Source: an uncultured delta proteobacterium (GTDB taxonomy: Bacteria; Desulfobacterota; Binatia; UBA9968). From it: a stretch of DNA of 64,000 nt. Each line of letters begins with the position of its first letter. Position 1 is the first letter of the stretch. The notes beneath the pieces are model-generated. The model worked only from the letters and a program-made list of their open reading frames with translations, was not told where the DNA came from and did no database searches. A program made the position numbers and the translations under genes. This document shows positions 1,849 through 14,881 of this stretch, piece after piece. The stretch covers positions 1 to 64,000 of the forward strand of contig CAVXEP010000015.1 in NCBI GenBank assembly GCA_963760795.1, read 5' to 3'.

Positions 1849-2749
1849 TTAGACGACCAGGCGGCGCAAACGCGAGCTGCAATAATCTACAAGCATGACC
1901 AGGGCGATAAGTACTAACACGATGGCCGCCGCTTCTTGATAATGGAAGGTGCGAAAGCTGGTGTTCATTAGATAGCCGATACCGCCGGCACCGATCAGGC
2001 CTAAGACCGACGCAGCGCGGATGTTGGTTTCCAGGCGATACAGCGTGAATGAGATCAGGTCTGGCAGGATCTGCGGCACCACGGCGAAAGACAGAATCTG
2101 GGAATAACCGGCGCCGGTAGCGCGAATCGCTTCAACCACTCCCTCGTCGATGTTCTCCACCGACTCGGACAACAGTTTACCCAGCACGGTCGCGGTATGA
2201 ATGGCCAATGCGATGGTGCCGGCGAAAGCGCCCAGCCCGACGGCGGCGACAAAAAGCAGGCCCAGGGCGAGATCGGGTATCGTTCGCACCAAATTTAGCA
2301 ACAGGCGCACGCCGCGATAGACGGCCGGATGGGGCGAAGTATTGCGCGCGGCTAAAAACCCTAGAGGAAAGGCAACCAGCAGCGCCAGGAAAGTGCCAGC
2401 CAACGCCATCTGGATAGTTTCCAAGGTCGCGCCCATCACCGTCTGGGGGAAAGTATTGTCCCACCAACGTTGTCGAGCCCTGGCGTCGGCCTCGGCCAAT
2501 GGCGCCGGCAATAGCAGCTCACTTAACGAAAGCTGCTCCGGGAAATAGTAGTGCTTCGCGTCGGTGATTTTAGAAAAATCCGGCGCGCAGCATGCGCGCC
2601 AGAGTCTGGCCGATCTGCGGTACGCCTTCGATCAACTCACCAGGCCGAATCTTCGCGCCGTGAAACGACCAAACCAAGACCACGAGCAAAATGGCTAAGG
2701 AAACGAAGAACCGCCGGCCCCGTTGCGGCCGGACCGGCGCTTCGTTCAT
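1849..2749 (-). CDS. phnE: Phosphonate/phosphate ABC transporter permease PhnE (one frameshift near 2575)
   Basis: ORF 1849-2511 has the EAA loop and YRLETNIRAASVLGLIGAGGIG; the N-terminal TM segment MNEAPVRPQRGRRFFVSLAILL is in another frame from ATG 2749. Confidence 0.9.
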
Positions 2750-2896
2750 GATATCGTAGGCTGTTTCTTGATTGCGATCGGCGTCCAAACGACTGCTCCC
2801 GCTGCATTGCCTTGCCTGCGCCAATTTTGTCGCTTGGCGATTGCCCTCCATCACCGCAGGGGGTATGCCATACGCTCCTACGTTCGGATTCTTTGC

Positions 2897-4580
2897 GTTG
2901 CTTTACGTGAAAACTTCCTCCGTGCGCAAACTTCTAAGCCGCCATGCTGTGAGTTTCTCGGTACTTGCTTGTCGCGCTGCTAGTAGTGCGGTCATTATTC
3001 GTCGGCCTTTTTCCGTCACCACGTAACGGTGAGTCTTGGGTACTTTGGCAATCAATCCATGCCCGCGCAGTAGCCTTATCTTTCTTCCTACCGCCGCCAT
3101 CTGATGATGTGCTTTGCGCTTGTCCGAGCTCGCTGTATGGAGCCGCCCCCGCACATCGCGATTGCGAAAACCGTTGATCGTATACTCGCCTCGGCTGACC
3201 GCTGCCATCAGTGCCGCATCGGCGTCCCCCATCGGATTGAGCGCGCGATACCGCTGCCTCTTACGCCCTACGGCCCGACACACCTCTGCCGCTTCCGGCC
3301 CCAACGCACTGTCGATCTCCACCGCCGCTAGCGCCGTCAAATGCCGATCGGTCGCTTTGCGGCTCACTTCGGCGCGCCGTCCAAAATCGGCCACGCTGCG
3401 CCTCAATTCCCGCCACTGATGTTTACTCTGCGGCTTGTTCTCAGCTCGCCGCCATACTCGAAAGCTCCTTCGTGGTCGTTGATCGTCACCTCGTCGCGCA
3501 GCACACTCCCCTTGTCATAAAACTTCAATGAATTCTTGTTGACCCAGTGCTTGACACGCACGCCTTCACTGCGCCGCCGCCGATCCGTCACCACCGCGTC
3601 GTTGATGCCCACTCGTCCCGACCGCCCCATGTAGCGCATCACCTGCTCGGCTCCCATATGCATCACTGCGTGATGAACCAAAGCCCGATAGATCCGCTCC
3701 AGTGCCCCTGCGATCCCTAAACATCACATCGCTAGCATATTCGCTCTGGCTTGCCGTCCAGTAATAGCCTAACTCTATCGGTCGGCTGATTTCCTCGTGC
3801 ATCGGATGACAGCGCTTGACCAACTCCTCCAACACCTTCGGCCAATCGGTGCCATGCTGCTCTTCGATCAACTCTTGGGCCCGCCCAACATCGCCGATCC
3901 ATGGAAAACAGTTGTCTTCTTGCCGGTAGGCTATCCCCTCTGTGTCCATCTGTCGCCCTAGCCATTCTCGCCCGTTCACGCAGACCTGGATTAAAAAGGG
4001 AAACCACGTCTGTAATCGTAGATGCATAAATCCCAACTCTTCATGCTCCCAATAAAAGTAAAGATGTTTGCACTTCCCCCATTCCAGTCTCAACTCCAAC
4101 CCCTTAGTCTCGGTGGTTGCCTCGCATCCGCCACGTCCGGCATGGCTCTACACAACTCATCACCGCGATCAGTCCTTGCTTGATCCCGTCGCGTTCCTTG
4201 ATTCGCCGCGCCTCATCTTCCTTACCCGTTTGGCTCGATGCCAGATAGATCACAGGCCGCTGGTGCTGCTTGCCCAACTCCTCGGCCGCTTGGCATATCC
4301 GCCCCGTCAGTCCTATGGCGTATCTCTTAAAATCTTTCCACAACACCCCGGCTTTTCTCAGGTACTGTTCCATCACCACGGGATAGTACAAACACCGCAG
4401 CGTCCCTTGTAGCCGCAGCCTATCCCATCCGTGCAGCACTCCGATCACTTCGCTCTGGTGATGTTCTACGAATGCCTTGCCTACTTCGGACTTCGACAAT
4501 TTCTCTGTGTTTGTTGCCATGACTGCCTCTTACATCATGACTCTGCTTCTGTCACTTTGGTTGCGGCTCTGCTGCGCTAA
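2897..4580 (-). mobile_element. Putative unclassified insertion element with no TIRs, inserted in a 9-mer repeat
   Basis: A single transposase-like gene fills the element; flanked by TTCTTTGC at 2889-2896 and 4582-4589; subterminal hairpin at 4563-4575. Confidence 0.65.
2934..4520 (-). CDS. Putative transposase/rolling-circle initiator-like protein with C-terminal wHTH (four frameshifted pieces, ~530 aa)
   Basis: ORFs 4104-4520, 3566-4099, 3403-3681 and 2903-3406 join into one protein: GWDRLRLQGTLR...CVEPC...KCKHLYFY...QTWFPF..NGREWL...SLKFYDKGSVLRDEVTIN...GFRNRDVR...LLRGHGLIAKVPKTHRYVVTEKG; probable TAG at 2934-2936. Confidence 0.75.
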
Positions 4581-4651
4581 GTTCTTTGCCACTAAAATTC
4601 CAACTCCGAATCTTCTTCACTGTGTCCTCTGCGGTGAATCATTCGGTTCAT

Positions 4652-5196
4652 TCACTGTTTCGCCTTCGCCCAATACCCTGACTCATTGTACTCTTCGGTG
4701 GCGAGATTTTTCAGACCGATCTTATCGTAAAGTTCGCCGAGGACGAAATGCAGCGTAGGCTCGTCCGAGTCGGCGTTGATCGCTTCAAGCAAGGTATCCC
4801 GGGCCTCGTGGAACAGTTACTTGGACATCAGCAGATTTGCCCTGAGCACCGCCAACGTGGTTTCGGCGCGCCGTGCATGGTTCCCAGTTCGGCCAAACGT
4901 TCTTTGACCGCCTGCGCCTCCAAGCCACCGAGCAATGTGAAAGTCGTCTTGCTGACGGCGACGCCTTTTTTCTCGATCGACCAGTAGTATTCGACACCGG
5001 CCTGCAAGCGCGACGCCGTTGCCGGACAGGCGATCTTGGTTAGATTGATGTTTTCGGCGCACCAGATTTCTCGCTGCGGGCCAAATACTTTAACCGTGAT
5101 GTCGTTGGCACGGAGAGAGCGAAAGAAATATGCCGTGACCGGAGATAGCGTCAATACCAGATCGAGGGTAGAAGGTCTAAGCAAACAGTACGGCAA
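4652..5196 (-). pseudogene. Degraded hypothetical gene with a C-terminal TPR-like helix pair
   Basis: ORF 4828-5196 continues after a frameshift and an in-frame TAA as LFHEARDTLLEAINADSDEPTLHFVLGELYDKIGLKNLATEEY. Confidence 0.55.
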
Positions 5197-5627
5197 GACG
5201 ATTCCTGATTACCCGAAAAACCATGGAGCAAAAACGGCAGTTTGTCATGCGCTCTTGTGGTACAGTGAAGGTTAAGGGCCGCGCTCGAGCCGCTTACGGC
5301 GCCGCAGTTTCAAGGAGTTTCATTTCCCGCGTTGTTATGCGCCCACCCTATTGGTTTGCCAGATGGCGTAAATATAGCCGAAGCTCAACATTACTTGTAC
5401 TAAAGGTGCGCCGCATCGGCCTTTGCGCCAATTAGATGGCTTTTCACAATCTAGCTTTGAAAGCGCCGAGGGGCCGGGCACACTGATATGCAGCGCCACC
5501 CTAGTTAAAAACAAACTAAAAAGGAAGTTGCCTGGGATTGACCGATAAGCGTCGTTCCCCTAAGTTGGCAGGGACCGCGCTCATCCCGCGCCTTGGCTGT
5601 CAGTCGCCATTAGCAATCGGAGGTACA

Positions 5628-14775: not shown

Positions 14776-14799
14776 GGGCGAGTTTCAAACCCGCCCCAC
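14776..14799. repeat. REP-like palindrome
   Basis: GGGCGAGTTTCAAACCCGCCCCAC; the reverse complement starts GTGG and forms an imperfect hairpin. Confidence 0.55.
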
Positions 14800-14881
14800 A
14801 GATCCGACGCGCCTTTGCGTTCTTGGCGGTTTGATCTCCGCTGCCGAATCTCTTCCTCGGCTCCAGCGGCACTGAAGCAAA

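Follow-up and report, generated by a model that had tools for sequence, protein, structure and literature searches.

To our knowledge, bacterial insertion sequences (IS) rely upon a handful of enzyme types, namely the DDE, DEDD and HUH tyrosine enzymes and the serine or tyrosine recombinases. PMC4797284 and PMC5714925 characterise the Rep_trans proteins by a catalytic tyrosine carried on a sheet, three carboxylates on separate strands, and the signatures YxK and W/LxRxE, the motif series given in PMC5714925 being N' (D), RxD, T/SxY/ExG, YxKxxE and W/LxRxE. According to PMC13107129, the archaeal Rep-Arvir proteins join a TBP-fold nuclease to a MarR-like winged helix and act upon a hairpin origin, their kinship with Rep_trans is structural only, and Rep_trans had previously been thought confined to plasmids, filamentous phages and conjugative transposons. 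Here we describe an element on the minus strand of a 64,000-nucleotide (nt) stretch of contig CAVXEP010000015.1 (hereafter the window, meaning that stretch at its full length), which derives from an uncultured delta proteobacterium (assembly GCA_963760795.1, here G000). Positions 2897-4580 of the window are an insertion, the degenerate remains of an insertion sequence of 1.5-1.8 kb, which is best read as belonging to an undescribed, very large and unnamed IS family; the family is probably driven by a Rep_trans-like tyrosine nuclease.

Results

The boundaries of the element are defined by orthologous sites that lack it. When window positions 2300-5200 were searched against 31 genomes of the genus (G000 included), other species were found in which the two element flanks adjoin each other, and three such empty sites were read; none of our conclusions draws upon G004, an unpublished genome listed by that search. 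Each site lies directly after the stop codon of the same upstream gene: the G022 site reads ..GGAATTTTAGCCGCAAAGAAC GCAAAAAAATCCG.. (the tract before the break ending in GCCGCAAAGAAC), that of G019 ..TTTTACCGCAAAGAAC GCGAAAAAATCCG.. (ending in CCGCAAAGAAC), and that of G021 ..TTGGCCGCAAAGAAC GCAAAGGGCAG.. (again ending in GCCGCAAAGAAC), and the intact intergenic site of all three species is of the type ..GCAAAGAAC/GCAAAA.., where a slash here and below marks the junction. Because these orthologous sites already hold both 9-mers, the element (2897..4580, minus strand, 1684 bp; an inactivated, IS-like copy) lies exactly between two 9-mers and its boundaries are exact. The repeat unit on its 5' side, GCAAAGAAC, occupies 4581..4589 and that on its 3' side, GCAAAGAAT, 2888..2896, both on the minus strand. 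Read on that strand, the upstream junction is ..GTGGCAAAGAAC(4581)/TTAGCGCAGCAGAGCCGCAACCAAAG.. from 4580, or at greater length ..GGAATTTTAGTGGCAAAGAAC/TTAGCGCAGCAGAGCCGCAACCAAAGTGACAG.. across 4581/4580, and the downstream junction is ..TTTTCACGTAAAGCAAC(2897)/GCAAAGAATCCGAAC, or ..GGAGGAAGTTTTCACGTAAAGCAAC/GCAAAGAATCCGAACG.. across 2897/2896. Deleting 2897-4580 rejoins GCAAAGAAC-GCAAAGAAT, two 9-mers that are identical at 8 of 9 positions.

The two ends of the window copy are dissimilar: the first 25 nt match the reverse complement of the last 25 at 7 of 25 positions, and the best match over 49 offsets is 8 of 20. At the upstream end the tip, TTAGC (4576..4580, minus strand; family consensus N-Y-A-G-C), places 5 nt between the element boundary and a subterminal hairpin, GCAGC-AGA-GCCGC (4563..4575, minus strand), which is followed immediately 3' of the stem by the near-invariant stretch AACCAAAG (4555..4562, minus strand). 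The downstream end closes with AAAGCAAC (2897..2904, minus strand), where the family has [AT]TAG[CT]A[GA]T. An earlier, sequence-only reading had proposed a mobile insertion with these boundaries, devoid of terminal inverted repeats and bearing a hairpin 5 nt inside its upstream end; the empty sites bear out the first proposal, the end comparison the second, and the hairpin lies where it had been placed. The 8-bp match of the flanking units is moreover not a matter of chance, as the tandem is uninterrupted in G022, G019 and G021, and the related empty tract that had been pointed out near 14813-14831 is a real, further unoccupied copy of the same dispersed repeat, reading ..CCGCCAAGAAC/GCAAAGGCGC.. 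and then GGGGCGGGTTTGAAAC (14813..14831, minus strand).

Two side observations belong to this site. Read on the minus strand, the final 22 nt of the element (GGAAGTTTTCACGTAAAGCAAC, 2897-2918) are similar to its 21-nt 5' flank (GGAATTTTAGTGGCAAAGAAC, 4581-4601), and BLAST placed the element 3' end and the 5' flank on the same spot of the empty G022 site; this likeness could be accidental or could reflect mimicry of the target by the 3' end. Contig C3 of G000 also carries a homologous empty copy of the insertion site; there the gene that lies downstream of the element in the window recurs at 87% identity (G000:C3:241295-241980), with the empty repeat upstream but with a different upstream neighbour. 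This locus may be a paralogue or the DNA of a co-binned relative, the latter being conceivable because bin contamination amounts to 6.15%.

Between its ends the element carries a single minus-strand gene for a protein of about 526 residues (2903..4520), broken in the window into four open reading frame (ORF) pieces at 4104-4520, 3566-4099, 3403-3681 and 2903-3406. Its matches to an intact relative, P0101, fall in three reading frames with stops inside, as they also do by tblastn, and the loss of one base near the C-terminus has moved the ancestral stop, which in intact relatives closes the sequence ..LTALAA (2934..2936, minus strand), out of frame. The assembly holds further pieces, namely a second and likewise broken copy on contig C19 (69% identical), a 310-bp derivative on contig C2 in which the first ~165 nt are fused to the last ~155 nt, and a 100-bp 5' fragment on contig C4.

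Searches beginning with the 242-residue N-terminal ORF of the C19 copy led to 1679 longer proteins of about 526 residues; among the 120 of these matches that were listed, none has a Pfam domain, all are 'hypothetical' or unnamed, and most lie on contigs of 1.7-2.3 kb. An exhaustive protein search returned 3542 clusters (50% identity) at E<=1e-3 and 341 at E<=1e-30, while an ESM Atlas search gave unnamed clusters only. For comparison of the ends we assembled 93 loci, 13 from genome contigs together with the best 80 from metagenome contigs (589 of 600 candidate stretches being relatives); many come from related hosts, such that the counts that follow are not of independent cases. The ORF is uninterrupted (from residue <=20 to >=515) in 76 of the 93, and element length, where both junctions were called (39 loci), ranges from 1523 to 1829 bp with a median of 1711. 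Members occur in assemblies labelled 'Deltaproteobacteria', Alphaproteobacteria, Spirochaetales, Anaerolineae, Planctomycetaceae and Acidobacteria. Nearer to the window the distribution is patchy, with the element in 7 of 41 genomes searched (G000 included), that is, in 6 of 24 others of the same genus and in 0 of 16 from the order's two other families. We found no published account of such an element in titles, abstracts and selected passages of the literature, and a literal search of the literature for the hairpin motif returned unrelated matches only.

Mobility is evident from young copies. G018 carries three intact copies, 98.9-99.5% identical to one another, each in its own TTCAC(CACGAAGNN)3 array, where it parts unit 2 from unit 3, the DNA outside the arrays being unrelated, and one alphaproteobacterial assembly carries four near-identical copies whose flanks differ. 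G003 holds, in a non-orthologous array (L108, G003:C10, locus 1470-2540), an internal fragment of 1006 bp that is 97% identical and has lost both ends, yet is bounded directly by GCAAAGAAC/ and /GCAAAGGGC, intact target units of another array; this fragment is possibly the product of end-directed deletions. The orthologous flank matches in G003 lie ~136 nt apart, a distance too short to accommodate the element, and the flanking genes there are only 85-88% identical to those of the window, as against 97% for the fragment.

Junctions were called in the window copy and the 93 loci by a regular expression anchored on the ORF. After nine 5' calls (L042, L047, L051, L053, L054, L059, L063, L093, L097) and six 3' calls (L014, L040, L041, L084, L088, L091) had been dropped, together with loci whose contig ends before the junction, 58 upstream and 57 downstream junctions were retained. 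The base before the upstream end is C in 56 of 58, and the element begins N-Y-A-G-C-G-C-G-G, with A at +3 and G at +4 in 58/58, which gives an upstream consensus of C/NYAGC-[GCGGC-loop-GCCGC]-AACCAAA. The element ends [AT]-T-A-G-[CT]-A-[GA]-T, with G at -5 in 57/57 and a terminal T in 55/57, and the 3' flank opens with R, C and R, each in 57/57, with A at +5 in 47/57, for a downstream consensus of ..TAGYART/RC... Inspected by eye, the junction listing showed no tendency of the 3' end motif to covary with the type of host repeat. In many members an imperfect A/T-rich palindrome, AAATCTTC..GAAGATTT, lies 15-25 nt short of the 3' end and could form a second subterminal hairpin; in the lineage of the window copy it is weak.

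Some 3' ends are arranged in unusual ways. Three of the four alphaproteobacterial copies (L013, L018 and L020, at ~3064-3165) carry the last 53 bp of the element in tandem duplicate, the duplication beginning at GCAG, a sequence also found directly after the first 3' end, and this suggests slippage or re-use of the end. At L065 the 3' end runs directly into ACAGCGCGGCC-CCTT-GGCCGCAACCAAAC, which is the 5' end motif of another, related unit, the two standing head-to-tail.

The target itself is a short tandem repeat of 8-10 nt whose sequence depends upon the host (CACAAAGNN, CGCAAAGNN, CACGAAGNN, CACGGATGNN, CACAGAGNN and others). It takes the form ..NNC/RCRAAG.., with insertion in one orientation at a unit boundary, and since the cut falls invariably after the first C of the unit, joining the flanks restores an in-phase array. 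Examples are L028, CACAAAGAG C/ACAAAGAT CACAAAATA, and L025, CACGAAGGG C/ACGAAGTA CACGAAGAG. Across 43 loci, the two flanking units of a locus resemble each other more closely than units taken from different loci do (mean best identity 0.646, against 0.515 +/- 0.017 on permutation, with 0 of 2000 permutations reaching the observed value). Suitable sites are plentiful, as the assembly of the window contains 509 tandem 9-mer pairs, compared with 2 in a shuffled genome, and at least 80 sites like ..GCCGCAAAGAAC/GCAAAG... As an observation apart, four loci of different lineages (L024, L031, L044, L067) have an identical 3' flank, ACACG[CA][TA]TTTTCC[CG]AGACT[AG]CGCT[GC]GGAAAAAG. This flank forms a perfect hairpin of 11 bp that precedes a conserved ORF, and it may be a second recurrent target beside a hairpin.

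Were this a conventional DDE insertion sequence with a 9-bp duplication, GCAAAGAAC and GCAAAGAAT would be its mutated products, agreeing at 8 of 9 positions, and the similar near-repeats around many relatives would find the same explanation; but both units are already present in the empty orthologous sites, identical flanking units occur at 0 of 43 loci, and the flanks of copies that share 99% identity are unrelated or non-identical, while inverted ends are wanting and no RNase-H-like fold appears among the structural matches of the protein. Duplication of the target is excluded by the flank comparison, the empty sites and the unrelated flanks of the young copies taken together, the 9-bp version being contradicted by the empty sites, and we attach almost no probability to a DDE element.

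Among 70 loci we found 38 distinct upstream hairpins, with arms nearly all GCGGC/GCCGC and loops of variable sequence, mostly 3-6 nt long (a few are longer, some of them mis-calls of the regular expression); certain lineages (L015, L059) have much longer stems. In 50 aligned ends, pairing holds in 98.4% of the 250 stem cells, a level reached by 0 of 500 shuffles, and falls to 17-56% when the partner column is shifted by 1-3. Both sides have changed in six stem cells, at two of the five pairs: of the 50 ends, 45 have G-C and 5 have C-G as the outermost pair, 49 have C-G and 1 has G-C as the innermost, and no pair is altered on one side alone. Four sequences, that of the window copy among them, have A.C as the middle pair, and since this would be a G.T wobble on the opposite (plus) strand, there is a weak hint that the strand that folds may be the complement of the gene strand. 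After the stem A29, A30, C31 and C32 are invariant, and the next three A are at least 90% conserved. Separately, in a sub-lineage of seven loci (L040, L041, L050, L056, L058, L062, L069) the motif and its next 15-20 nt recur as a reverse complement ~60 nt downstream, and the resulting palindrome of ~100 nt precedes the gene.

Hairpins of this kind also occur without the gene. A strict motif finds 50 in G000, compared with 4 in a shuffled genome, ~28 of them genuine by eye, while a loose expression does no better than shuffled sequence (226 against 188). Many of these solo hairpins are preceded by ..CACGAAGNNC/CTAGC, the same junction as that of the full element, and many run into a GCAAAG array 12-16 nt on; by regular expression, the upstream unit stands at 12 of the 50 hits and the downstream array at 15. 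Solo units were read at seven loci in members of the genus, several of which lack the gene: at one locus of G008 two tandem 36-nt hairpin units, CTAGCGCGGCAGAGCCGCAACCAAAGAGATTTAACC, are each followed by GCAAAGAAC and then an array, and G019 has two unit types in succession, each running into its own array type. The solo units look like miniature derivatives inserted at the same phase.

We also observe that G000 harbours a genome-wide family of composite intergenic repeats, made of 9-mer arrays (CACGAAGNN, CACAAAGNN, CGCAAAGNN), GATTCGGA-type spacers, solo GCGGC-NNN-GCCGC-AACC hairpins and terminator-like stem-loops (GGGGCGGGTTTGAAACCCGCCCC or GTATGGCATAC). Instances lie at 2846-2896, 4581-4650 and 14780-14860 of the window and at C15:21920 and C15:136857, and an array often has an inverted counterpart within a few tens of nt, the two forming a long palindrome.

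With the family in hand, the remaining proposals of the sequence-only reading can be considered. Repeat-targeted, orientation-specific insertion is upheld by the C of the 5' flank, the R-C-R of the 3' flank and the permutation result; the end motif AGCGCRGC..GCCGCAACCAA, whose conservation had been put forward as a check, is kept family-wide with a covarying stem; and non-autonomous copies of it do exist, as the 310-bp derivative and the solo hairpin units. The hairpin, which it had read as the recognition or nick site, remains a putative one. It had also taken the AAC at both junctions as a short core through which insertion occurs. AAC is indeed present at both ends of the window copy, leaving there, and there only, a 3-nt ambiguity of the boundary, but a suffix common to 5' flank and element 3' end is found in this copy alone (1 of 39 loci with both junctions called). 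An AAC core is accordingly not a feature of the family, and insertion through a core does not stand, as relatives end in ..AAT or ..AGT and have neither shared core nor duplication.

Absence of inverted ends and of a target duplication, with insertion into repeats in fixed orientation, are hallmarks of IS110/IS1111, in which a non-coding RNA would guide a DEDD recombinase to the repeat. The present element shares all of these traits. Against such a mechanism, the protein has no IS110 match in Pfam or NCBIfam and its fold is not RuvC-like, the window's lineage has just ~60 nt of non-coding DNA upstream of the gene and ~40 nt downstream, element and target have no shared core, and no Rfam family is present (at E<=1 the sole match on the element locus and the 310-bp derivative was a chance-level microRNA outside the element). 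We judge an IS110-like identity exceedingly improbable, and RNA guidance was rejected as contradicted by the protein. A retroelement was also rejected, there being no reverse transcriptase match.

Pfam and NCBIfam searches of the four ORF pieces and of full-length relatives gave sub-threshold winged-helix matches only, and a profile search against PDB sequences gave weak MarR-like matches only. The AlphaFold models are of good quality by their own scores (full model, pLDDT 91.2 and pTM 0.77; N-terminal domain, pLDDT 90.2 and pTM 0.87). In them, residues ~20-400 run through strand, helix, four strands and helix twice over, building a curved saddle with internal two-fold symmetry, which is the TBP topology; residues 400-527 are a MarR-like winged helix, as the structure matches also indicate. 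The fold matches have scores in the range that the tools call common: against 48,161 representative chains, only TBPs and two Rep_trans initiators among the 50 matches listed align across both halves, the other listed matches aligning over <=120 residues, mostly within residues ~255-400. Matches in a viral structure library are giant-virus TBPs at probability 0.99 and several unnamed or Inoviridae proteins, among them A0A345MNV4 (E 6e-3, probability 0.96), a Rep_trans-domain initiator according to PMC13107129. A Foldseek search of the PDB returned no match at E<=1e-3 for either the full model or the N-domain model, and RNase-H-like, RuvC-like and RRM-like HUH folds are all absent among the structural matches.

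Among 53 full-length members the invariant residues include D33, R34, K100, Y154, Y156, E260, D264, K332, Y334, R341, E343, N452 and H486, and an N-domain alignment of 61 translated loci agrees, save that Y156 is there nearly invariant (>=90%). D33, Y154, E260, D264, K332, Y334, R341 and E343 all lie on predicted strands. In the model K332-x-Y334-x-K336 and R341-x-E343 occupy neighbouring strands in the second half, whose first strand carries E260/D264, while D33 is found on the first strand of the first half, and the order of D33, E260/D264, Y334 and E343 is the D, D, Y, E order of RepDE, as a pattern match rather than a superposition.

It might be argued that the TBP-like domain is a mere module for binding DNA or a hairpin, with breakage and joining left to other chemistry in the protein or to host replication and repair enzymes. 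What speaks against this is that invariant Tyr, Asp, Glu, Lys and Arg residues lie on the strands, in K-x-Y-x-K ... R-x-E, with conservation down to 38-45% identity of a sort typical of an active site, and that the element encodes no other protein, its gene being intact in 76 of 93 loci. We deem a binding-only role unlikely, albeit deserving of some weight.

Discussion

Taken together, we consider it probable that this IS family is driven by a Rep_trans-like tyrosine nuclease through transposition of single-strand or rolling-circle type. Under this scheme the winged helix and saddle would recognise the end hairpin, and Tyr334 of the K-x-Y-x-K strand would nick one strand at the element tip to form a 5'-phosphotyrosine link, assisted by a metal that the strand-borne carboxylates D33, E260/D264 and E343 (of R-x-E) would hold. 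The strand, having left by either a copy-out or a cut-out route, would then enter the repeat target through the reverse of this reaction, in the manner of IS200/IS605 or IS91 but with a different nuclease fold. Such transposition fits the dissimilar ends, the want of a duplication, a covarying stem-loop at a fixed 5 nt from the tip, the fixed bases beside both junctions, the strict orientation and the duplicated 3' ends, as well as the abutment of 3' upon 5' end at L065 and the end-trimmed copy that lies between intact target units in G003.

Several points weigh against the proposal. The window copy is itself inactive. A few of the retained 5' calls are off by 8-9 nt, and the junction counts are those of regular-expression calls; at the three alphaproteobacterial loci with duplicated ends, moreover, the counted 3' junction is the first of the two tandem ends, and as the outer flanks begin CC in two of them, R at +1 is to be regarded as a strong preference rather than a rule. 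The compensatory stem changes would equally fit a palindromic double-stranded site bound by a dimer. As to the protein, a Pfam scan of three full-length members at E<=10 found neither PF02486 nor PF25227, hhalign of the N-domain profile against a pT181 RepC fragment gave a probability of 0.2%, and the correspondence of Y334 to the Rep_trans catalytic tyrosine is drawn from motif pattern and strand location rather than superposition, with Y154 (invariant) and Y156 (invariant or nearly so) as alternative nucleophile candidates. Neither a circle junction nor a covalent intermediate nor an event of transposition was seen. Beyond the element, a PF02486 search of the whole G000 genome also found nothing, the Bacillus subtilis control being positive.

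Alternatively, the element might be an integrated minimal rolling-circle replicon, akin to a plasmid or a satellite of a filamentous-phage-like element, whose initiator would also integrate it at repeat sites and whose chromosomal copies would be by-products of the replicon's life cycle rather than of true transposition. Its closest structural relatives with enzymatic activity are replication initiators, its domain layout is that of the Rep-Arvir initiators with a hairpin origin, many of its metagenome contigs are approximately element-sized, and among the copies are some with a doubled 3' end or with another 5' end next to them. Yet all copies whose flanks were examined are chromosomal, with host repeat DNA on either side; in none of the contigs read is the 3' end of an element joined to the 5' end of the same element; a 1.7-kb element whose non-coding DNA comes to 40-170 nt has little space for a second-strand origin; and several dispersed copies occur per genome. 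A replicon origin for the copies seems to us improbable.

A transposon driven by a Rep_trans-like nuclease would have consequences beyond this locus. As the protein resembles the second, non-HUH class of rolling-circle nuclease, it would add a new enzyme type to transposition. It would likewise link Rep_trans/Rep-Arvir replicons to transposons, as HUH Reps are linked to IS91 and Helitrons, and account for a class of abundant intergenic hairpin and short-repeat DNA in uncultivated bacteria. More tentatively, and as something we consider possible rather than likely, the enzyme, a Rep_trans-type tyrosine nuclease of TBP fold with a winged helix, could represent one more mechanistic class among prokaryotic transposases. 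Besides moving its own 1.7-kb element it would seed and mobilise the short hairpin units, and perhaps the adjoining 8-10-nt tandem arrays, with which the intergenic DNA of many soil and sediment bacteria is filled, a structuring of genomes like that by REP/RAYT upon an unrelated fold. The family numbers thousands of clusters in several phyla that are still called 'hypothetical', and its recognition would better the annotation of genes of this sort, which break metagenome assemblies into element-sized contigs. The element would further offer a compact, sequence-specific and orientation-specific insertion system for study.

Like the present family, IS110/IS1111 elements are repeat-targeted, inserted in one orientation and free of inverted ends and duplications; what the family lacks is a DEDD/RuvC-like domain, a shared core and any long non-coding region that could supply a guide. 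IS91/ISCR and Helitrons (HUH Y2) have in common with the present family dissimilar ends, no duplication, a short specific insertion site, and variants with skipped or duplicated ends; the family belongs, however, to another nuclease superfamily by its predicted fold, has no helicase and no Y2 match in Pfam or NCBIfam, and takes a far narrower target. IS200/IS605 and REP/RAYT systems (HUH Y1) also lack inverted ends and duplications, bear subterminal hairpins, insert in one orientation beside a fixed short flank sequence, and are accompanied by dispersed small hairpin units resembling the element end. Unlike these, the present family has neither an HUH motif nor a Y1_Tnp match (Pfam, NCBIfam), its fold is entirely different, its element is larger, and its target is the unit boundary of tandem short repeats.

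Rep-Arvir (DUF7845, PF25227), as described in PMC13107129, shares with the predicted architecture of the family protein an N-terminal TBP-fold nuclease, a MarR-like winged helix and a hairpin cis site, a likeness of architecture only; those proteins are archaeal and replicon-borne, whereas the present family is a bacterial insertion sequence without a PF25227 match. With Rep_trans (PF02486)/MOBT, that is, RepC/RepD of pT181-type plasmids, RstA of CTX phage and NicK/Orf20 of ICEBs1/Tn916, it has in common the curved, duplicated TBP-like sheet, a DNA hairpin where the protein acts or would act, and a separate DNA-binding domain; the conserved Tyr in basic-x-Y-x-K, the R-x-E after it and the carboxylates on other strands are alike by motif pattern and predicted strand location. 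It differs in showing no detectable sequence similarity to them, in a saddle of ~380 residues with large helical inserts (against ~200) to which the winged helix is fused, and in residing on a 1.7-kb, multi-copy chromosomal element with defined ends and a repeat target rather than on a plasmid, phage or conjugative element.

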